A stretch of DNA of 58,193 bases, filler included, from Basidiobolus ranarum (lineage: Eukaryota), in NCBI GenBank assembly GCA_040143965.1. It is 4 parts of 4 records of this genome, joined end to end, with 100 filler letters (N's around TTAATTAATTAA, not from the genome) between each part and the next. Parts side by side here need not be neighbours in the genome. Positions count along the whole stretch, not along the records: positions 43,747 to 58,193 come from JASJQH010007300.1; 3 more parts are not named here. The stretch is one strand, 5' to 3'. This document shows positions 4,510 to 58,193 of the stretch, piece by piece; position 1 is the stretch's first letter, and each line of letters starts with the position of its first letter. The notes under the pieces were generated by a model, which was not told the DNA's origin, did no database searches, and saw only the letters and a program-made list of their open reading frames with translations. A program made the translations under genes and the position numbers.

Positions 4510-5991
4510 CTAGTAGGATAGGGCAATCATGACAAGGGAAGTAAGAATCAAAAGAGAGCTTGCAAACTCATAAGGTGTTAGAGAGATGGCAGAAGAAGTA
4601 GAAGCAATATGGATTGTGTCTAATGAAGTGAACAAATGGAAAGGTTGGAAGAGCCTGGTGATATTGTAGGATGGTCTATAAGCATTTAGAATTTCTTTAC
4701 TAGCTTCCAAATATCTTGGATCGTTGTAGATCACGTAAGCGTTCTGTAGGGTACGTACATATTGAAGAGTAGCACCAAAGCCTTCTACATTCGGGTAAGG
4801 CCAAACAGATTGATTTAAGGAGTATGGCAAGAGGTAGTCTAGAGCTCGTTTTATGCTTTGCCCTTTGCTACCTTTGTAGTGATATAGATCAACACCAACT
4901 TTAGTGCTTAGTGCAGCTAGGTGAAACAGCCCATTTAGATTGAATATGGAGTAGAACCAGGAGGTAGCACGCAAAGTTTCATGCGGCTGTGAACCATCGG
5001 GACTAATTTGAGTGTCAATTCGGCTACTAGTAGCATTCAGAGCTACCTTTGAAGCTAGGTCATCTCGGCCAAGAAACAGAGCAATGGCCATGTATTGAAC
5101 GTCAAAGTAGGTGGCTAATTAAGAATGATTAGTAAACTATAGCAATAGCGCTGATCTTCCTGACACTTACCGTGGTTATTGTGAGAAGTGCGTTCGAGGA
5201 AACCGAGTTCGCTTTTGTCCAGCCATGCCATATACTCCGTAAACCATTCTCGCAGACCGTTGGAAATATCTTCGGTCCAGTTTGATGATTCCTGCAAGTA
5301 TGGGATGACATTAAATAAGTCAGGCAACACGTTTAAATCGATGATCCCTTGTCGGCGTCCAAGATCCTCCCCACGTATATATGAGGCGTATCTCAAATGT
5401 GGGTTCATACGAGTCGAATTATCAACGAACCAAACTTTAAGGTGTTCAATAGCCTTTGACGCATAACTGTCGTTCTCCAGAAAATAGTAGGCTAAGCCTA
5501 GCGACTGAACATCTCGCACCTAAATTATTGAATTATCGGTATCTTATTTCAATTAGGGTAGATATATGAATACTTACCAGGGCACGGAATAACTGATAAT
5601 CCGAAACTGTGTTTATCTCTGGGTTGGAATGACCATCTCGACGTTTATAAGGCAGACCGTTCGGAGACTTCTCATTGGGCCAATAGTATCTGGCAAGTGA
5701 TAGGTAGTCTTGGCGGTTATTACTCGGAGGAAGTTGCGACTTAGTGGTAATGCTATATAACGTGTTGTTACCACAAGCTCTATCTGCCTTCTTTTTTAGC
5801 GTGTAGAATGCATCTTGAAGGTTTGCGTCATACGAGTTCAATTGTCGCTTGTTCTCAGCGAGTATCGAGGGATCTAGGCTGACAAAAGAGAACTTTTCTT
5901 CGACTTTGGCGCTACTAGCCATCCCTACATTCTCCAACAATCCTGTGGTAATCAATAGGATTAATAAGCTACTTCTAGATTTTCCCACCAT
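4510..5991 (-). CDS. Secreted alginate lyase family (PF05426-type) polysaccharide lyase, 3 exons, hydrophobic C-terminus (GPI-like)
   Basis: Motifs DYLSLARYYWPN...GLPYKRRDGHSNPE, WFVD..TRMNPHLRYA, NNH|ATY (across an intron), QISPDGSQPHETLR and FNLNGL. N-terminal hydrophobic leader; Ser/Thr-rich stretch and hydrophobic tail at the C-terminus. Confidence 0.85.
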
Positions 5992-7436
5992 AGCGATTTC
6001 TAATTCTGTCAAAGGGTAGAGCTTGTATCAGGTGTTGGGTGTTCTATGTAATATCGCTCTACAAATACCAAGGAGATTGAGAACAAGGGTGTATAGTATG
6101 CAATAGTAAACGCCTCTGTATGATGTATTCCAATGATTATACTGGAAGCGGTATGTTTATCTTTTATAATATCTCGAAAACTAGGCAGTGTTGGTTTATG
6201 GAATATGAAATTCATTTCGAATATTTCCGATACTGAGTTCCAAGAAATTGAGAATAATTGATGTAAACCTGATAGCTATGCTTATGACAATACCAAGATC
6301 GCTAAGGATATTCAAAGGAAATTACTTGTGATCCTCTCGGCATGTAGTTCTGAATTTTGCAGCGTTATTCAGAGCACAGGCTAATTAAAAGTATCCATAC
6401 AATATCATTGTTGGATGCATGAGGTTACGAATACTCGCATGGTTTTCAAGTAATGGCTGTTTTCAATTGAACCTAGTAATTTCTCTATTGAACTGCGACA
6501 ATGAGATTTAATGCCAATACACCCATCGGCCTATTCGCTGTTGCTGTTCGGTATATGGTACTGAAATTCACAAACCATTACTAATCGGCAAAGAACATAC
6601 CAGATACAAACCTAAGGAGTGACTGAATTAAGTTGATCAGTAAGATCTCGCCTCGTCAATGGTGCTATTAGTTGCATTATATATTGATGTTATCCCTACG
6701 TAAACTCCGAACTTTGGGGTCGGATAATAAAGAATAACCATCAAATCATATTGACATGCCATGATGTTTTGTTGGATACAGCGATTTTTGACTTTAATTA
6801 TTACGGTTGTTATCTAGACTTTGACTAGCTGGTTGCGTTCAGATGACCGCTGGATTAACTTTTACTCTGCTTAACAAGGAATTATTAAAGTAATCTGTCA
6901 CTAAGGAACTTCTGATATCTGTATAGATGTGATAGCCATTCAGTTGACCGTCTAATGCATGCTGTTCTACTATCGCCGATCTAGTTGAAAATAAGAACCT
7001 TCTTTGAAAACCTCTAGAGTTTATATGCTAGTATCAGTGAGATTTTCTTGGTAACTTTTTATCAGAACCTAAACCTCTAGAAGCGGCTGGATATCTGTAA
7101 GATAGATTGGAATGCTAGAATTAGGTATCGTATCTAGATGTCACTTATCTATGTATGCACTGTTCAATACCACAACTATCATTAGCATATAGATAATTCA
7201 TTTAATGACATATTTGATTCAAATAAAAGGTACTAATGTTAAGGCTCGCATTTTCATTACAAGGCTTTATATCAATACTGCATTTATATATTGTGCGCTA
7301 AAGAATTAGGTCTTCGTTTACCCATTCCATTGGAACAATAGGGGGCTTACTCTCAATAAATTTGTCAGTGTTTTTCCATTGGCAGTGTTGTCAAGTTAAT
7401 AATTCTACTGCGTCTTAAAGTACTTACATATCAAAC

Positions 7437-29189: not shown

Positions 29190-32100
29190 CGCTCAAGCGG
29201 CATAAACTATGGCTCCTTGTATGTACCTCCAAATGACCCAGATACGTGGATGCAGCATCATCCTACTCGACTATTCATCGTTCGGATAGACATATAAGTT
29301 TAATGGATGCGGTTGTTAGGGCTACTGTCGGAATGGTCGATGACGATTATGGGGATGACAGAGCAGATGAATTTTTAGATGAGCCGTATGCGCATGCCTC
29401 TAATATAGACCCTGAAAGACTGTCTTTACTTATCAAAGGATACAGCACGCTTGCTAATTCCTTTATACCAGCAGACGAAGATCCAGCAGATGATGCAGCT
29501 TCCGGAAAGTGGTCCAGACGCAAAAGCATCGCTAGATCCATCTATTCTGCCCATTATGCCAAAGAGGTTCCCGTTGAAAATGTTAAAGAAGTTATCCCAA
29601 AGAATCCTATTGAATTCATGAAATACTCGGTACAATTTTTACCGGCTGTTGCTCTTGGCGTTATACTGAATCTACTGAACGCAGTATCTTACGGCTTCAT
29701 TTGTTTTCCAACTGCACACCCTATCTTCTCTAGCTTTGGTCCTGATGGTATTTCCATGTACCTTGTGAGGTGTATCATAGGCCAGATCGTATTCTCAGCT
29801 GGTGGAAGTGCCTTTAAAGGTGCCAATGCTGGTATGATGTTGGAAGGTAAGAAGCATTAACTAAATTAGTCGACCAAGTCACGGTGTCTAATTCTTCTTA
29901 TCCTTATTTAGTAATTCCTTTTCTGTACACCATGTAAGTAAACCATTCATCATTCTCTAAATATTGTGAAGTTTTACTTAAATGCTGTTTAGTTGTGATA
30001 TTGTCATCCGCGACGTCGGAGAAGAAAACCCCAAAGCAGTGATTGCCACTGTTATGGTTGGTTACGCAGCAGCTACTATATTCACTGGATTGACTTTTAT
30101 GCTCTTGGGTGTTTTCAAGCTTGGCTCGCTAGTGGGATTCTTTCCTCGTCATATCCTCGTAGGATGCATCGGTAATTGAGTGATTCATCTTTGTAGTGTT
30201 GGATATGTTCTCACCTCTATGTTGAATAGGTGGAGTTGGTTGGTTTTTATTCCAAACCGCCATAGAAGTATCCTCTAGACTCCCTTCCTTCTCGTTTGCT
30301 CCTGATGTTCTTAAAAACTACTTCGAGCCTTCAGTGTTAGCTTTATGGGCTAGTAGTCTTGGGGCCGCGTTGCTTATGAGAATCTTGCAGAAAAGGATTC
30401 AACATCCAATGTTTGTCCCCTGCTTCTTTCTCTCTATCCCCATCTTCTTCTACTCCATAGTGTACTTCGGAGGATGGAGTATGGACGAGCTACGTACCTC
30501 TGGCTGGGTCTTCCCATTACCAGAGTCCAAACCTTTCTATGATTATTGGACTCATTTTGGTAAGACTCTATACTAACCCGATCCTTTTACCAAAACGATA
30601 CCTGGTTCTAACATGGATGTTTTTCGTTAGATTTCTCTCAAACTAGCTGGTCAACCCTACCATCACTTATTCCTGTTATCTCTGCATTAACATTCTTTGG
30701 TAAGTAATATCTCGACCTATTGAGCAAAGATCGTCAAGTCTTTTAGAGATCAAGCATGATATAGAGTATGAGGTTCAATTTCTCTAAACATGGTTCTTAA
30801 TAGGTATCTTGCATGTGCCCATCAACGTCCCTGCTTTGGCCGTAACCAATAATCAAGATAGTGTAGATGTTAACAAGGAGTTGGTTGCTCATGGTTATTC
30901 CAACCTTGGATCAGGTCTCCTCGGCTCTTTCCAAAGTATAAACAAACATTCTATTAATTTTCTACGTCAATGCACTAAACAGTACTTTGTTAGATTACTT
31001 GATGTACTCAACAAGCACCCTCTTCATTAAGTGTGGCGGTGACTCCAGAGTGGCAGGGATGATGTTGGCCTTTGGTACTACAATCATCTTTCTGATTGGA
31101 CCTACTATGGTTGGTTTTATCCCAACGATGGTAGTTGGCGGGTTAATTTTCCACATTGGTATGGAATTAATGAAGGAAGGAATATGGGATCCAATTGGCC
31201 ATGTGGATACATTGGAGTACACTACGATCTTGACTATCGTTATATCGATGGCGATTTTCGGATTCATTGAGGGAATGTTTATTGGAGTGGTATTGGCGTG
31301 TATCTTCTTTGTTTACCTGTGTAGTACCCGTAGAGCTATTCGAGCATCATTGACTGGTCTTACCGCCAAGAGTACCGTTCGCAGACCACGCTTACAACAA
31401 CGATTCCTGAATGAAGTTGGTTCAATGGTCCAAGTACTACGTCTGCAAGGGTTTATGTTCTTTGGATCAATCAACGGCGTAGAAAACAATATTCGAGAGA
31501 TCCTAGACGCTAGACAGTGGGTGATGAATCCGATTCGGTTCTTGGTTTTGGATTTCCAATAAGTACAAGGTCTTGATTTCAGTGCAGCTGAAGCTTTCGT
31601 TCGTGTTAAACGTTTGTTAAAGAGCAATGATGTTTACATGGTTGTATCTGGAGTCAGCGCAGATTCGGACATCGGAGTAGCACTTCGTGCTTTTCACATA
31701 TGGGGTGGTTTCGATGATGCTTATGTTCAAAACTTCCAGGATTTAAATGCTGCCCTGGAATGGTGTGAGAATGTGTTACTCCAAGCTGATTATCTCATTC
31801 GTGCCGCACTCCTAGCCTCGCCAAATAATATTGACATACCAGAATCCAGACAAGATGCTCGCTCGGAGATTTCTTTCGCACCTGCCTCACCGCGTCAACG
31901 TTTGTTGAAAGATGCTGCACGTGCCGCTCTTGACGATGAACCTCATACGCGTAAATCAATGGGTCAAGTCAATCAACCACTAGCACTTTTATTACAAATC
32001 TTCCAAGAAACTTCCTTTGATAGCTATGAAGATATTCTTCGTAGAATTAGCGTACACTTTCAGAGAATTGAAGTACAAGCTGACACCGTTCTTTGGGAGC

Positions 32101-32420
32101 AAGATGATGAGCCAGACGCGTTATATCTGGTTGAACAGGGTCTTTTGCATTTCTCAGTAGAGATGAACCAGCATAGTAAGGTAATTGAAACCGTAATCCC
32201 CGGAGTTATGATCGGAGAAATGAGTGTCTTCACTGATCAAATACGTCGTGACACGTTGGTCGCTGAGATTGACAGTGTTCTATGGAAATTAGACAAAGAA
32301 ACCTATGATAAGCTGTCTAATAACGAAGCAGACCTCATCCTTGGATTTGTCAAAATTGGACTTGGTTTCACAGCCCAAAGCTTTGTTACCATGAAGAGGT
32401 TAGCATTTGCACTCCAATGA
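29190..32420 (+). pseudogene. Vsb1/YGR125W-like SulP (SLC26) transporter with STAS and cNMP-binding domains; one in-frame TAA; 5' end in gap
   Basis: Motifs LPAVALGVILNLLNAVSYG, FFPRHILVGCIGGVG, LHVPINVPAL, ELVAHGYSN, LQGFMFFGSI, DFQ*VQGLDFSAAEAF (TAA 31560-31562), DLNAALEWCEN and a cNMP fold (LYLVEQG...GEMSVF). Confidence 0.75.
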
Positions 32421-45224: not shown

Positions 45225-46385
45225 ATGAAAGCGCTTTTCTTCGACAAATACACCACTTTCGATAATTATACCTTTGGTGACTTACCTAACCCTGAGATTC
45301 ACAACCCTACCGAGGTATTGATCAAAGTCCATGCAGCCAGGTTTGTAACACAATTTTTATAAAACTCAAGCCAATCTAGTACACACTTCCTTTCAGATAA
45401 TAACCAAAATATTCTTTCCGTTCTATTTAGTATCAACCCTATTGATTACAAGCGTGCCAATGGGCTATTGAAGATGGTGGAAACCATCGAATTCCCAGGA
45501 AAACTTGGCTATGACGTATCTGGAGAAGTGGTAGCGGTTGGCTCTGAAGTAGAGCGGTTTAAGATCGGTGATTTGGTCTATGGTAGAGTCCAATCACACC
45601 AAGTAGGTACACTTGCCGAATATTGCGTTGCCTCAGAATTTACTTTGTCCAAGAAGCTTGAGACCATGAGCCATGTAGAAGCTGCTTCGTATCCCTTGGT
45701 ATTTCTCACCGCACTTCAAGCCTTAATAACAGCTGGCTTAGATGCTGAGAATGTGGCAAATAACAAAGACAAAAAGGTGTTTATTACTTCGGGATTAGGC
45801 GGAGTTGGGTATCACGCTGTACTCCTAGCGAAGAATTTCTTCAAGGTAACCACTATAGCTACCACAGTATCTACAGGGAAACTTAAAAGAGCCAGAGAGA
45901 CATTTGGTGAAGATACGGTGCTCATTGACTATAAAACTCAGGAAATTACGAAGGAGCTTCATGACTATGACGTACTATTTGATACAGTAGGGACCGACCT
46001 CTTGAGCAACATGCATGTACTTAAAAGAGGTAGTGGTTGTGTCAGTATTGCTTCTACTCCAACAGGCACGGCGCTCATCAATGCATTCCAATCTCCGGAT
46101 GCTAGCAGTGGACTTGGTAGTTGGGCAGTTAAGAATTTGGTTAATCTGGTCGCTTCGCCTTACTGCCTTCAAGCGTGGCGCTTAGGTATCAATTACGAGT
46201 ACATCTTCATGAAGCCAAATGGCAGTCAGCTTGAGAACATCCTGAATCTCCTATTTAGCGAAGGAAATATGCCAGCCAACATAGATAAGGTGTATGGTTG
46301 GTCAGAGAAGGAATGTAAAGAAGCTTACAAACATCTAGTTGATGGCCACTCCTCAGGCAAAGTAGTCATTAAAGTCCGTGACTAA
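45225..46385 (+). CDS. Medium-chain dehydrogenase/reductase (NADPH:quinone reductase / RTN4IP1-like)
   Basis: Motifs EVLIKVHAA|SINPIDYK, LGYDVSGEVVAVG, GTLAEY, GLGGVG and GHSSGKVVI. One intron. Confidence 0.9.
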
Positions 46386-47856
46386 ATCGATGAGTATATT
46401 GTAGATTGTTGGTAATTAGAAGATAAATTAAATAGCGAAGATAACTGTTTCTTCTATGGATATTTGGCAGCGTAGTGAAGTATGAAATCAATAAACTCTG
46501 CTATGCAATATTCTTGACTCCTACTCATTACGAACGAGAACATAAAAAAGCCTTGAGCTAAGAACCTTACAATTTACTTGAACTGACTAATCTTGGACGC
46601 TGCAAAATATACTCCTAACTAGACTGTTGCGCTGTAACTGCCATTGTGTAAAACCCATACCAGTCTTGAGTCTATTTCAGATACACGTCAACATTACTGA
46701 CACCTTGGAGCTATTCCAAGAAGACCATTGGGTTGTAGAATGATGTAGCGATGCATCGAACAGATTCGCAGCAGATTGTTTCTAAAAAGGTTATGGAGAA
46801 TCGGCAACTGCCTCAACTCGGTACCAACGTGTAGAAAAAGCCGAGCTTCAACTCTGGCCAAATACGTGAAAGAACAACGGACACGGGTAGCTGTAGCTTT
46901 GTTCTTTCGTGTTAACTTGCCGTACTGTCAAAGCATGTGGGCTGTGTAGAAATATAGCATGCACAATGAATGAGATCCAAACCCCTTGAGGTCCTAAATA
47001 AATAATGATAGGTTTATCGAATATATATGCGGATCTCTCAAAAAAAGTGCCTTAGCTTTTGTGAGCCAACTCAAGGTTTTCTGGAAATGGAGATGTCAGG
47101 TGACACAGAAAATCTTCCATCTAAAATTCGGATCAAATGGAGCACTCAGGTTTTATATGAAAGCTTGCTGACCAACGAAAGTTTAAAGTCCATGCCACTG
47201 ACCCCAGTCGCCGTATTTGTGGATGTGTTTGAGCATTAGAGAGATTTAATAATATCCAGCACCCCAATCTGGTCAAACAGAAAGAAGGAATTGGGTTAGT
47301 TTTGATATTTCAAGAAACTACGCATTCCTGATTTGGTGGCTAAGACGGCTTTGCTCTAATCCACACTTTGTTGGCACCATGGGCACATACAAATTCGGTA
47401 CCCACTTGTGCCCCTGATTCCGTTATTTTAGGCTACTGACTAATGGAATAGGAAAACCCTGGTGAGATCAGTGATGCATGGGCTTATTTTATACGGATTG
47501 ATATTGATGGCCACTTTGAAGATGCCAATTTCCCACGTCCATTAAGCACTACCATTTTTTTCCTCTTTCTTAGGTCCCTTGTGATCAAGACTCGGTTTAT
47601 TTCTACCTTGCTGTTATACCTATTAATATCTCAAATTTAATCAATACACCAAGTTAGAACGATTACTTTGAATATCTGGCCTGTTGACAAAGCTTTTACT
47701 TTACAGTTTCTTGATAGATATCATACCGGCTAGAACAAGTGATTCTCATTACTGTGAAATAACTTGTTCATTATCTATAGATACAGTTAAATTTCAAGAC
47801 GAAGCACTCAACAATCGCAGAGTAAGACGATAGAGACTTGAGTAACTTCTATCACT

Positions 47857-50800
47857 ATGACAACAAATACTGCACCAACATACATACAGGTCAATACTCA
47901 ATCCTTAAATAGATCTAGTTCACTCTCACTTTCACCCTCACCGGTTGATAATCATATTTCACATGCTGGACGACCACGCAACGAATTATGGGATCATTTC
48001 ATCAAAGGTGAGAAGCGACCTACTACAAACAAATACGATGCGCGATGTCGTTATTGCGTTGAAAAAGGAGATATTAACACAATCCGACCTGTACGCGGTG
48101 AGAAGAAATTTATGGTTGCTCATCTCAAAAAGTGCCTGAATGCTCCAGAAAGTTTACGTACGCGCATTCGCGGCGAGTCAAATCACTCTACGGAGGCTCA
48201 AGGTAAAAATGACGATGAGATAGAAACCAAACGAGATTTAGAGGATAATCCCGCCAAAAAACGGAAGTCTAATGGTACTTCTGAATCGGAATGGATGTCT
48301 TCCGGTGTTACTCCCCAATCTCTCAATGAATTTCTACTTTACACTTCGGATGCAGAAAAAAAGTCTCAGGACGATAAATTTTATTTGGAAGATAGCTTTG
48401 TTTCCAAGTATAAAGAACGTTTGCCCTCTTTTGGTTTTAATGGGCTTGGTGAGATCATATACCGGCGTACATATAGCAGACTTGGGAAAGATGGAACTCG
48501 AGAGCAATGGTATGTACTCGCCTGGCAAAGAGCAATGCATATAAGTATACGTTAGCATTAATTGACTTTTCAATATGAATCCAGGTGGCAAACCGTTCGG
48601 AGAGTTGTTAATGCCACATTCAGCATGCAGAGGCGATGTATTGAAAAATCGAACTTGGGGTGGAATGAAGAAAAAGTGATATTCTTTCTTCCCAAGCATT
48701 CTCCAACACAAACTGACCTAGATCTTATGATTTTAACTTTAGGCGCAAAAATCTGCACAAAAAATGTTTGATCGCATATTCAGCATGAAGTTCTTACCAC
48801 CTGGAAGAGGTAATATGTATGCCAAGGACAAAGTCGGGATTTCTTCTCTATTTCTAATACTAGTCATATAGGTCTTTGGGCAATGGGTTCGCCGCTGACG
48901 GAAGAACGTGGAATCTACACAGCTCTTAACAATTGTGGCTTCGTTAGTACTGAGTGTATGTGGGAGCGGGGATTTACGCCAAGTAAGCCCTTTGCATTTC
49001 TGATGGATGCCTCGATGCTGGGGTATGTAACCAACCCAATCTATGTCGCAATGCTTGTAGAGTCAATAGTTAACTCTAGAAAATCTGATCAGAGTAGGGG
49101 TGGGGTTTGATACTAAAGGCGCAGCAATTGCCCGAGAACGAGGTATCATCGTAACAGGGCCGGATGCCACACTGTCTCCCAGCGTTTACACTATCCCTGA
49201 TTGTCGAGAAGGGTGGGTCAAGTCGATAGAATTGATTGTCGATTGCTATTTCAACGCAGATATGAGCATACAAGCAAGTGCATTTAGTTCGTGGATCACT
49301 TTTAACCATATTCTAATGAAGTTACATCTCTTAGGAATTCAAGTATCATTGCATTCGGCCTGCGGGGGCACCTATAAAAGGATTCGGTGGGCAGTCATCT
49401 GGACCCCAGCCTCTGATAGATCTCCACAATCGTATACGGGAGGTACTCAATAAAAACATCGGTGCACCGATATCTGTGACGACGATTGTCGATATCATGA
49501 ATCTGATTGGAAAATGTGTTGCCAGTGGAAATGTAGTTAATCTCCTTGCTTGTTCTATGTGCTACAAGTCGACTAACCACTCATCCAAATCAACATAGGT
49601 CAGACGTAGTGCGGAGATAGCTTTCGGAGACCCTTTTGATGATGAATACATCGATTTGAAGAATTATGAGGTGAATCCTCATCGGTGTGAATACGGGTGG
49701 ACAAGTAACAACTCTGTGCGTGCTTTCAGTCTATTTTCTTGGATACTATTTACTGACCGAGTATTGTACACATTCCCTTTCTAGGTATTTGCGAATCTCG
49801 GCATGGACTATCATAACATCTGTAAACGTGTCATTGCTAACGGTGAGCCTGGGTTTTCGTGGTTAGACAACGCACGGAACTATGGCAGAATGGGTGACCC
49901 TATGGTAATCTGTTTATGACGACACCATCACTTTACTTGTTTGCTGAATCCTTCTCTTCCACATTGTTGATAGGATAAGCGAGATTATCGAGCACAGGGA
50001 GGAAATCCATGTCTGGAACAAACCCTTGAATCCTTTGAGTTATGTTGTCTCGTTGAGGTGTTTCCCAATAACCATACGTCGCTGGATGATTTCTTGGAAA
50101 CACTTGAGTCCGCATTCCTCTACGCTAAAACGGTGACCTTGGGAACTACACATTGGCCAGAAAGCAATAGAGTAATGATGAGAAATCGTAGAATTGGAAC
50201 AGGGTTGAGTGGTATTGCCCAATTTATCAGTAAAAGAGGTGATTTCAAATGTAAAGTATGGATTCCCGACTGTGACACTCAATATCATGTTAATCTCTTA
50301 GGACTTGAAGAGCTTAAAACGTGGTGCGAAGAGGGATACAAGCATATCCTGGATATAGACAAAAAGTAAGATAATGGCACTCGCAATGGTATATACTTTA
50401 TCTATGCTTACAGGCATTTTAGGCTATGTGAATGGCTGTGCATTCCCCAATCCATCAAAACCACCACCGTTAAGCCCAGTGGTACGGTTTCGCTATTAGC
50501 TGGCGGTATGTAGCTGTACACCCTTCGATTAGATCGATGATATGCTAACCTGCCTTCCCCACCCAGCCACCCCTGGATTACACTATCCAGAAAGTAGATT
50601 CTGCATTCGCCGTGTGCGTTTATCTAAAATGTCGGAAATGGTTGAGCCTTTCCGAGAAGCCGGGTACAAAGTAGAACCTGATGTTGGTACGTTCCGTTTG
50701 ATGTATTTTTCACACTAGAAGATCATTCTCTCATCTAACCACCACTCCCTCTACCATACTGCAGTGGAGCCAAACACGTTGGTGGTTGAGATTCCTATTG

Positions 50801-51297
50801 ACCATGGTGAAGGGATAAGATCGCTAGCAGACGTGACGATGTGGGAGCAGTTGTCTTTGGCAGCCTTTATGCAGAAATACTGGTCTGACAATCAAGTCTC
50901 ATGCACCATAACGTTTGACCCGGAGACCGAAGGATCTCACCTTAAATACGCACTCAACTACTTCCAGTACCAGTTGAAGGGAGTTTCCTTCTTACCTAGA
51001 ATTCCGATGGGTGCGTACTCCCAGATGCCGTATGAAGCCATATCAGAGTTTAAATATCTTCAACTGACTGCGAGCATTACTAAACCTGGGCCCAAGAGTC
51101 CCAGTGTCTCCCACCTACTGTTAAATCCACAAGGGCTGACGGCACCCGACCTTCGGAATATCGAAGGAGATCCCACAGTGGATCCAGAGATTGAGCGATT
51201 CTGCGATTGGAGCCCTTACATGTTCGATAGCGCATGTGCCAATTCTGGTTTACCAGAGGAGGCTAACACGTGCCCCTCAAATATCATGAGATTTTAG
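47857..51297 (+). CDS. nrdJ: Class II adenosylcobalamin-dependent ribonucleoside-triphosphate reductase (monomeric NrdJ/RTPR type) with N-terminal BED-type zinc finger
   Basis: Splices by eye through 12 introns with no stops. Motifs [111 protein letters not shown] and YSQMPYE. Confidence 0.95.
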
Positions 51298-51449: not shown

Positions 51450-52399
51450 AATCATGCACTTTTATCATATTTATCCCGAAATTTAATTGTACATTCCTGA
51501 TTTTGTCGACATCTTGCAAAGCTATGTCATTTTTAAGCAAATTGCAAGATTGAAACAACCATTGATTCATTTGATAGTAGACATCCTTGTACTTCTCTGC
51601 ATTTTCATCAAGACATACCCTGATTTTGGTACTTTTAAACAACGTTGATATTTTCCACTCATTTTTGATTTTTTTGATTTTTTGGAAAATCGAGACAATT
51701 TTTTTCTTGAGCGAAAAAGTATACCTTGTATATTTGATGAGCTAATGGCTGGTGTCCTAGATATAAACGCAGATAACCTAGTTTCTTGTCAAGTTATCTC
51801 AATATTAAGGTTCAACAGAGGATACCCTCTCCATTCACGATCTAAAAACTTGCTTGATTTATTACCTCGACCATATAAGGCTTTCTCCTCGAGATATCAT
51901 TCTAGACCATTTTTGTGCTATACCCGTCAAGACATCAAACATGACTTTGGATGATCGTACCAAAGCTTTACTCTCAACTTTCATGTTGTTATGGATGAAG
52001 AATAATGAGCTAAGTTGTAGTCAAACTTATGATGAGTCTTCAAGTGATTCAGATAGTGATCTTTCGGATGATTTCTCCGATTCCGATTTTGCCTTGGAGG
52101 AACTGTCTGATAACGAAGAAGCTCTATTTGAGGAATATCGGAGTTTACAAGAGCAGCAGCGAAAGATGCAAAGTGCCGCATATATGGAGTACGATTTAAA
52201 TTTACCTAATGAACATATCAAGATTGAGACTGAAGCTGAGGAACCACGTTTATTAGAAAAGTCTGAGGAGGATGTAAGTGAAGATCCTTCCGTTACTACT
52301 AGTGTACTTCAAAAACGCAACATGCTATTAGACGAGGAAGACTACGATGAACCTCTAGAAGCGGAGGAAGCTATGAACAAGAAGAGAAAGACTGAATGA
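51450..52399 (+). pseudogene. Hypothetical protein with acidic tract and C-terminal KKRK; 5' part possibly disrupted
   Basis: ORF 51854-52399 extends back to an acceptor at 51819. A putative upstream exon 51450-51628 reads MHFYHIYPEI*LYIPDF...TYPDF, with an in-frame TAA at 51484-51486. Confidence 0.4.
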
Positions 52400-57134: not shown

Positions 57135-58193
57135 ATGAGCTACCAGGAATACACATTCAAGCTGAATAACGGGGAACTTATGCCAGCGATTGGACTAGGT
57201 ACTTACGAGGCGAACAACACCGCCGATAAGGAAGAGGCCAAAGTTGCGGTAATGAAAGCGTTAGAGCATGGGTATAGACAGTTTGATTGCGCTCATGTCT
57301 ACCGTAATGAGAAGGAGATTGGTCAGGGATTTCAAAATACCAAAGTTTCAAGAGAGGATTATTTCGTAACTAGCAAATTGTAAGTAGAATGATCTCCAGT
57401 AGAGAATGATCAGGACGTTGGTTAATCATTCCTTCTCTTCATCCATAGATGGTGTAACTGTCATCGTGCTGAGGATGTTGAGAGTGCATTAGATGTGACG
57501 TTGTCTAATTTGAAGTTGGATTATCTGGATTTGTATCTGATGCACGTAAGCTACTTTGATACTTTTGCACGTTGAAGACAGGTGGAATTAAGTTTCCTTT
57601 ATCATAGTGGCCCTATGCCTTTAAATCCGGTAGTGATCCTTTTCCCCTAGATGATCAAGGCCGCATCATTATCGAAGATACCAGTATTATTGAAACATGG
57701 AAGGCTATGGAGAAATTGGTAGATATAGGAAAAGTGAAGTGTAAGTGAGGCCATGTCACGTGATATGCATGTTGATCACATACCAATAGTTAATACCGTG
57801 ACAGCAATTGGAGTTTCCAACTTTTCTGTCCCTCGACTTGAACAACTTCTGAGCAATTGTAAGATAGTTCCCGCCGTCAACCAAGTCGAGTTGCATCCAT
57901 ACCTCCCCCAGAATAGGCTCCTGGACTTCTGCAGCAAGCATCAAATCCATCTTACCGCTTATGCTCCATTAGGAGGCCCCAGATCTTCCTTAATGACGGA
58001 TGATGCTTTGGTGAGTTTCCTTTACAACGTATGCTATGTTCGAATCCATTCACTTACTTTCCCATTCGCTATACTCCATACTCCATAACCTAGATCCAAG
58101 ATATAGCCAAGAAACTGAACAAATCACCTGCGCAGGTGATCCTATCTTGGGGAATTCAGCGTGGAACATCTGTGGTACCCAAATCATCCAACG
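57135..58193 (+). CDS. Aldo-keto reductase (partial, runs off window)
   Basis: Motifs [48 protein letters not shown] and NQVELHPYL. Confidence 0.95.

Follow-up and report, generated by a model that had tools for sequence, protein, structure and literature searches.

Why would an enzyme of deoxynucleotide synthesis carry, at its N-terminus, a zinc finger of a kind known from transposases and regulators? This question is raised by a gene of the fungus Basidiobolus ranarum (assembly GCA_040143965.1), in which a putative BED-type finger and a short basic patch resembling a nuclear localization signal (NLS) precede a B12-dependent class II ribonucleotide reductase (RNR). The gene lies on the plus strand, within the portion derived from record JASJQH010007300.1, of a stretch of 58,193 nucleotides (nt) that joins four parts of four records of this genome with filler letters between them; this whole stretch is referred to as the window, and all positions are counted along it. 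An earlier note, made from the sequence alone, had described the arrangement as a rare and undescribed fusion, possibly created by capture of a transposon-derived exon. We find that finger, basic patch (KKRK) and reductase core are encoded as one chain, and that this intact gene represents a paralogue, specific to Basidiobolus, of the class II RNR of RTPR type in eukaryotes which has gained an N-terminal extension.

Reading frame and gene structure

The positions 47857–48510 (plus strand) translate into 218 stop-free residues (P0001), situated in a stop-to-stop frame that extends from 47842 to 48555. The first methionine codon of this frame is the ATG at 47857, five codons past an in-frame stop. 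RNELWDHF begins at R41 (47977; W45, F48) and is followed, after 15 residues, by CRYC (C64/C67) and, after another 21 residues, by HLKKC (H89/C93, ending at 48135). P132-AKKRK is located at 48250–48267, and the motif of 11 residues that marks the start of the reductase sequence begins at F174 (48376). An extension of 176 amino acids (aa) precedes the RNR_Alpha domain in the same exon, with no intron before the reductase start. Finger, PAKKRK and reductase start share one open frame, exactly as the earlier note had positioned them. None of 20000 shuffles of the 714-nt open reading frame (ORF) stayed open. Codon-usage log-odds, for which the reductase core and three further ORFs of the window served as training set, are highest in the annotated frame throughout the extension (aa 1–36: 2.6 versus −21.1 and −23.7; aa 37–100: 9.7 versus −4.2 and −31.1; aa 101–176: 18.0 versus −10.1 and −53.0).

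Splice-aware reconstruction of the gene (47857–51297, plus strand) yields 13 exons and 12 introns, a coding sequence (CDS) of 2643 nt and a product of 880 aa, without any frame break. The introns measure 57–78 nt; eleven are of the GT-AG type and one, intron 5 (49274–49334), is of the GC-AG type, its donor being the non-canonical GC (GCAAGT...TAG). The end of exon 1 at 48509, assumed before, is confirmed by the donor GTATGT at 48510. The protein P0002 of Basidiobolus meristosporus CBS 931.73 (879 aa) is colinear with the window from 47857 to 51294 by tblastn and identical to the model in 754 of 880 positions, with one gap of 1 aa. Over exon 1 it is the closest database protein as well (71% identity, 100% query coverage, all 218 residues), and the assumed fungal origin is likewise supported. 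The public B. ranarum protein P0003 (K7432_008009, 625 aa) matches the model letter for letter at an offset of 255. It corresponds to residues 256–880 (window 48743–51297), begins at the internal M256 in exon 3, lacks exons 1 and 2 and retains just profile positions 80–101 of 101 of RNR_Alpha. Because most of RNR_Alpha is missing, P0003 is an N-terminally truncated annotation, and our reconstruction corrects this public gene model for B. ranarum. The features of the gene are as follows.

47857–51297 (+): whole CDS of the BED-finger class II RNR gene, from splice-aware reconstruction, stop codon included
47857–48509 (+): exon 1, with leader, finger, KKRK linker and RNR_Alpha start, no intron between them; GTATGT donor at 48510
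48585–48675, 48743–48809, 48872–49022, 49093–49273 (+): exons 2–5, from splice-aware reconstruction
49335–49532, 49599–49715, 49785–49904, 49974–50238 (+): exons 6–9, from splice-aware reconstruction
50302–50365, 50423–50505, 50567–50686, 50765–51297 (+): exons 10–13, from splice-aware reconstruction
47857–47964 (+): Ser/Thr-rich leader, aa 1–36 (13 S+T in 36 residues), with a conserved SLSPSP stretch, from alignment to P0002
47965–48156 (+): putative divergent BED-type C2HC finger, aa 37–100, with a GRP motif in front, from alignments and profiles
48046–48057 (+): CRYC, predicted zinc ligands C64 and C67, invariant in the alignment of finger relatives (A1, see below)
48121–48135 (+): HLKKC, predicted zinc ligands H89 and C93, invariant in the same alignment
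48157–48384 (+): fast-evolving acidic Ser/Thr-rich linker, aa 101–176, from comparison with P0002
48256–48267 (+): KKRK, aa 134–137, monopartite NLS-like patch, from pattern match
48385–48509 (+): reductase start, aa 177–218 of RNR_Alpha within exon 1 (PF17975)
50004–50018 (+): N-P-C-L-E active-site motif; N406, C408 and E410 of 1L1L align via P0002

Conservation is unevenly distributed along the chain. Identity to P0002 amounts to 21/36 (58%) in the leader (aa 1–36), 60/64 (94%) in the finger (aa 37–100), 37/75 (49%) in the linker (aa 101–175), 36/42 (86%) in aa 176–217 and 601/662 (91%) in the core (aa 218–879). With 94% in the finger, 91% in the core and 49–58% in the flanks, the finger is therefore kept as tightly as the catalytic core, which supports purifying selection as the probable cause; the conservation of the finger region in an ortholog, on which the earlier note had made its proposal depend, is thus found. 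The leader is disordered and Ser/Thr-rich, the finger positively charged (15 K/R versus 8 D/E), and the linker variable and acidic. The linker stays in frame relative to P0002, with a single 1-aa indel. KKRK is the sole match to K[KR]x[KR] in the 880-aa protein, and it is retained in P0002 (TKKRKL), the rest of the linker being about 49% identical. In-frame methionines before the core are M1, M86 and M147 (48295). Since M86 lies inside the finger and M147 is a histidine in P0002, there is no conserved start for a fingerless product. The SLSPSP run of the Ser-rich leader (aa 1–36), which is kept in P0002, could be a phosphorylation site.

The reductase core

Pfam analysis displays RNR_Alpha, the B12-RNR insertion domain PF21995 (50.1 bits in P0002, 52.3 bits in P0003), which takes the place of a dimer interface, and the barrel in both P0002 and P0003. 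In the window, RNR_Alpha (PF17975) starts within exon 1, where aa 177–218 cover profile positions 1–42 (E 2.7e-10); it is complete in P0002 (aa 176–276). The best NCBIfam model is TIGR02505 (RTPR), for which P0002 reaches 337.2 bits versus a cutoff of 340.05, the training set of this model being prokaryotic. The dimeric-type model NrdJ_Z gives just 48.1 bits versus a cutoff of 399.95. Alignment of P0002 to the RTPR of Lactobacillus leichmannii (1L1L; E 2.3e-97) places C119, N406, C408, E410 and C419 on identical residues, so that the redox cysteine pair C119/C419 (1L1L numbering) is conserved. The motifs LNNCGF and GGNPCLEQ...ELCC of the window are identical to those of P0002 by tblastn. N-P-C-L-E holds what we take to be the thiyl-radical cysteine with its asparagine and glutamate, the residue roles being those of the RTPR literature.

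The gene is accordingly annotated here as one predicted to encode an RTPR-type class II RNR (monomeric, adenosylcobalamin-dependent) with intact catalytic residues, and the assignment to a B12-dependent enzyme of the monomeric type made in the earlier note holds, with TIGR02505 at 337 versus 340 bits and PF21995 present. Because the domains, the TIGR02505 match and the catalytic residues are all kept, we infer that the core is probably an active, NTP-reducing enzyme of this type (NTP, ribonucleoside triphosphate).

Nature of the zinc finger

A phmmer search with aa 30–110 against 1.84 billion representatives returned 38 proteins at E<=1e-3, and the most significant of the true relatives reached 1.2e-8. 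Two of them, P0122 and P0153, were discarded as relatives, being fn3 and PPC repeat proteins matched in 5–7 short stretches. The remaining 36 align over nearly the whole finger with about 30–47% identity. In an alignment of 20 sequences (A1), W45, F48, C64, C67, G81, H89 and C93 are invariant, which includes all six motif residues named before (W45, F48, C64, C67, H89, C93), and the consensus reads GRP..W.HF.RGEK...C.YC...RG...M..HL.KC..P. The Pfam family zf-BED (PF02892) is matched at E<=0.01 by 9 of the 38 proteins and above its cutoff by three (P0155, 32.5 bits; P0141, 23.4 bits; P0150, 21.2 bits). Four of ten further relatives also score above the cutoff (P0164, 29.9 bits; P0170, 23.9 bits; P0163, 22.2 bits; P0175, 21.2 bits), and 12 of the 20 members of A1 match at E<=1.

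Searching PDB sequences with the A1 profile places the human proteins ZBED2 (2djr, E 0.0046) and ZBED1 (2ct5, E 0.14) at the top two ranks, with W, F, CxxC and His aligned in both matches. In a collection of 5.8 billion proteins, 9 of 18 profile matches carry the source label "BED-type domain-containing protein", and relatives named in this way come from Pythium, Phytophthora, Bremia, Lagenidium, Achlya, Thraustotheca and Diversispora. A language-model search for look-alikes also leads to a BED-named cluster (score 0.95), which is treated as a lead only. The AlphaFold2 (AF2) model that was built with A1 (predicted local distance difference test, pLDDT, 75.7) displays strands at model residues 19–24 and 31–35 and a helix at 54–63. 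An all-helical AF2 model from the single sequence (pLDDT 61.3) was poor and was set aside.

The direct scores of the finger itself are weak. The zf-BED profile matches the window with 14.7 bits (E 0.032, profile positions 2–25 of 44), the isolated 81-aa finger piece with 16.1 bits and P0002 with 13.3 bits, each below the cutoff of 20.6. For the 65-residue finger, Foldseek gave no PDB match at E<=0.001; ZBED1, ZBED2 and ZBED3 occupy ranks 1, 4 and 5 with E values of just 3–4.3 (ZBED1 3.0). VIA-align gave no match at Z>=5 among 48161 chains, with top Z values of at most 3.3, ZBED1 at rank 3 (Z 3.1) and ZBED2 at Z 2.3. A phmmer search of PDB sequences with the finger alone returned no match at E<=10. 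Because the finger of the window stays below the Pfam gathering score, BED membership is based on its relatives and on the family profile. We conclude that the domain may best be described as a C2HC finger of BED type that is divergent and belongs to a subfamily of its own, and not as a textbook PF02892 by score. The earlier identification of a BED-type C2HC finger stands as far as the pattern of ligands and aromatic residues, the relatives and the profile are concerned; the HMM scan it had suggested left the window short of the zf-BED cutoff (14.7–16.1 versus 20.6).

Distribution and origin of the fusion

One of the 120 best listed NrdJ homologues, namely P0002, has the finger pattern ahead of its reductase start; four of these homologues lack a recognizable start motif (P0003, P0004, P0017, P0064) and were not judged. 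RNR domains are present in one of the 18 profile matches from the collection of 5.8 billion proteins, again P0002, and in none of the 38 library matches of the finger (phmmer, E<=1e-3). A metagenome scan with P0001 produced 129 pattern stretches, none of which was confirmed by tblastn. Among 36 entries read, the N-termini of other fungal class II RNRs contain no such finger and are short or of low complexity. The rarity that had been claimed for the architecture is borne out by these counts.

B. meristosporus possesses two fingerless paralogues, P0005 and P0009. In a quick maximum-likelihood (ML) tree of 45 sequences, P0002, P0003 and P0004 (the latter with a 5'-truncated gene model) form a clade with 100% support in the Shimodaira–Hasegawa-like approximate likelihood-ratio test (SH-aLRT) on a long stem (0.36), and this clade groups with P0005 and P0009 at 85%. 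Because of the counts given above (1/120, 1/18, 0/38), the fingerless paralogues and the tree, the fusion looks like an innovation of the Basidiobolus lineage that followed a gene duplication.

N-terminal extensions of 100–130 aa are present in many class II RNRs of fungi (P0008, P0010, P0012, P0013, P0015, P0021, P0024, P0025). These are hydrophobic and basic, Ser/Arg-rich, and resemble organelle presequences by eye.

The finger subfamily occurs mainly in oomycetes and early fungi. BED and DUF659 both score above cutoff in P0170 and P0175 of Diversispora epigaea, which makes these proteins hAT-like, and P0152 has weak matches to DUF659 and to the hAT-dimerisation domain. The finger most likely would derive, as far as such comparisons can tell, from a BED-type family that heads hAT-like proteins of early fungi and large uncharacterised proteins of oomycetes, and a transposon-related ancestry of the domain appears plausible. 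Neither an RNase-H-like transposase core nor a C-terminal hAT dimerisation domain was found by Pfam in P0002 or P0003. When 61 BED-family proteins were compared with the window by tblastn, the only matches outside the finger were two marginal rows (P0135 and P0160, E 0.009) at about 57860–58067. The upstream neighbour is an ADH-like ORF that ends at 46385. A nearby transposon was considered and rejected, tblastn revealing no transposase remnant and the upstream neighbour being ADH-like. The idea that a BED exon was captured as a separate unit was dismissed as well, there being no intron between finger and reductase start. Exon 1 contains the finger, the linker and the beginning of the reductase together, so that the structure of the gene does not demonstrate exon capture. 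Of the transposon-derived BED exon proposed in the earlier note, the link to transposons keeps some support through the hAT-like relatives (BED plus DUF659), and the separate exon does not stand.

Several observations on relatives may be added. P0131 of B. meristosporus (340 aa) carries a finger of the same subfamily (aa 5–72) at the head of a cytidine-deaminase-like protein with a PCGICRQ motif. The Pfam deaminase scores of P0131 are just under cutoff, and an intron may have been left in its model; the genus would thereby have two enzymes of nucleotide metabolism with a finger of this subfamily. In P0129 the finger is joined to an alpha/beta hydrolase, and in P0134 it stands at the head of a long protein with UFD1 domains at its end; these unnamed or MetaClust records may be real fusions or merged gene models. 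Oomycetes and early-branching fungi are also the two groups whose class II RNRs are reported as sister clades (PMC8085122).

Possible function and alternative explanations

We hypothesize that KKRK would drive nuclear import, that the zinc finger would bind nucleic acid or chromatin, as is the case for BED fingers in hAT transposases and in ZBED regulators, and that the single-chain enzyme, expected to reduce NTPs directly to deoxyribonucleoside triphosphates (dNTPs), would in this way be brought into the nucleus and close to DNA; other pools would be supplied by P0005 and P0009, the paralogues without a finger. That KKRK imports the protein, that the finger binds DNA or chromatin and that NTPs are as a result reduced to dNTPs inside the nucleus has, in our judgement, an even chance of being correct. 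An extended version, by which a nuclear DNA-tethered module of dNTP supply exists, a finger of the same subfamily delivers the cytidine-deaminase-like enzyme too, and the three NrdJ paralogues are split by compartment through their N-termini, may be considered but seems doubtful. Some points also count against the nuclear hypothesis: KKRK is recognized by its pattern only, the NCBI model of the B. ranarum gene (P0003) leaves out the finger, and the tree is a quick version. Furthermore, BED fingers can mediate protein contacts too, and DNA binding therefore does not follow from the fold.

The finger might instead be a protein-interaction or regulatory module, which recruits a reductant, a B12-handling factor or a replication/repair partner, or which controls activity or stability, nuclear import by KKRK being incidental or absent. 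RNRs are known to gain N-terminal additions that serve regulation or reduction. Class II RNRs with ATP-cones and C-terminal zinc fingers (10.1101/2022.04.23.489257) and a glutaredoxin fused to NrdB (PMC6187632) provide precedents. A ZBED3 chain inside a protein complex (9l4j_E) is among the top Foldseek rows, and the same finger subfamily heads unrelated enzymes, such as the alpha/beta hydrolase P0129. The basic charge of the finger, GRP in front of it, the conserved KKRK beside it and the hAT-like proteins with BED and DUF659 among its relatives point away from this explanation, but each is compatible with protein binding; we consider it unlikely. It is quite improbable that the main product lacks the finger altogether, with transcription or translation starting downstream, for instance at M147, and the finger part representing a little-used alternative 5' region. 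The NCBI protein P0003 for the same gene does begin at M256 and an in-frame ATG exists at 48295, but P0003 is clearly truncated (RNR_Alpha positions 80–101 of 101), M147 is a histidine in P0002, the finger is 94% identical between flanks of 49–58%, and the linker keeps the frame and has the codon usage of coding sequence.

In regulators, BED fingers serve as DNA-binding domains. The protein might thus moonlight as a transcription regulator, the finger sitting on promoters (perhaps of genes of nucleotide metabolism) and the reductase acting as nucleotide sensor, as a eukaryotic functional counterpart of a zinc-finger nrd regulator. The finger of the same subfamily on the cytidine-deaminase-like protein of B. 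meristosporus hints at a theme of nucleotide metabolism. However, no catalytic residue has been lost, the insertion domain is present and the core is 91% identical between the species, which speaks for an active enzyme and against a sensor and makes this possibility very unlikely in our view. Finally, the N-terminal part could be an artefact: the frame might be open by chance, the assembly might be wrong, or the sequence in front of the reductase might be what is left of a dead transposon. Apart from the sub-threshold Pfam score, nothing suggests this; it is largely refuted, and hardly credible, given that no shuffle in 20000 stays open, that an orthologous N-terminus exists in a second species and an independent assembly, that other parts of the long BED proteins have no meaningful match in the window and that the upstream gene is ADH-like. 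The nuclear hypothesis, with the finger as a putative DNA or chromatin anchor, is retained as our working model.

Other features of the window

The remainder of the window contains the following features of possible interest.

4510–6027 (−): ORFs matching Alginate_lyase (PF05426; 106.7 and 32.0 bits), a family unusual for a fungus
30942–32420 (+): sulfate-permease-family ORF, directly followed by an ORF with a cyclic-nucleotide-binding domain
51809–52399 (+): ORF downstream of the RNR gene, very acidic and Ser-rich, with KKRK at its end and no Pfam match

The Alginate_lyase ORFs could be a horizontal acquisition. The sulfate-permease and cyclic-nucleotide-binding ORFs are probably one multi-exon gene.

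Comparison with known systems

The enzyme shares RNR_Alpha, insertion domain, barrel and catalytic residues with the RTPR of L. leichmannii (1L1L) and with its eukaryotic homologues in non-Dikarya fungi and oomycetes, and differs from RTPR by an additional N-terminal extension of 176 aa, which includes the zinc finger and KKRK. That non-Dikarya fungi and oomycetes possess class II RNR has already been published, the two groups forming sister clades (PMC8085122). New is the domain architecture; the enzyme class was known in fungi, and P0002 is public under enzyme names. No description of the fusion was found in the literature searched, supplements excluded (Table S2 of PMC8085122 may list Basidiobolus proteins), which agrees with the earlier statement that the architecture is undescribed. 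The main text of PMC8085122 contains none of the terms "Basidiobolus", "BED", "zinc finger" or "domain architecture", and the available passages of Burnim et al. do not describe the fusion.

With the BED fingers of PF02892 (ZBED1, 2ct5; ZBED2, 2djr; hAT transposases), the Basidiobolus finger shares the W..F pair, CxxC, Hx3C and a predicted strand-strand-helix order. In contrast to them, it has a longer loop from CxxC to His (21 residues, with a conserved RG), GRP in front, and a metabolic enzyme as its fusion partner instead of a transposase or regulator. The BED-type proteins of oomycetes and Glomeromycotina (P0124 of Pythium oligandrum; P0170, P0175) belong to the same finger subfamily, with about 30–47% identity over some 65 residues, but they are proteins of 800–1100 aa without an enzyme domain, or combine BED with DUF659, and none of them has RNR domains. 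The Basidiobolus gene illustrates that metabolic enzymes, besides transposases, regulators and plant immune receptors, can recruit BED-type fingers.

The localisation of RNR and the local supply of dNTPs at sites of replication and repair are a long-running question in eukaryotes. To our knowledge, all known cases concern multi-subunit class I enzymes together with shuttling or recruitment factors. If the nuclear hypothesis were true, Basidiobolus would offer a natural experiment in tethered dNTP synthesis, in which a B12 enzyme made of one polypeptide yields polymerase-ready dNTPs, and possibly a compact tool for the same purpose. Other add-ons of RNRs, such as the ATP-cone or the glutaredoxin plus ATP-cone on NrdB of Facklamia ignava (10.1101/2022.04.23.489257; PMC6187632), are likewise N-terminal accessory domains. 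These bind nucleotides or deliver electrons, whereas the add-on of the Basidiobolus enzyme is a BED-type finger with an NLS-like patch.

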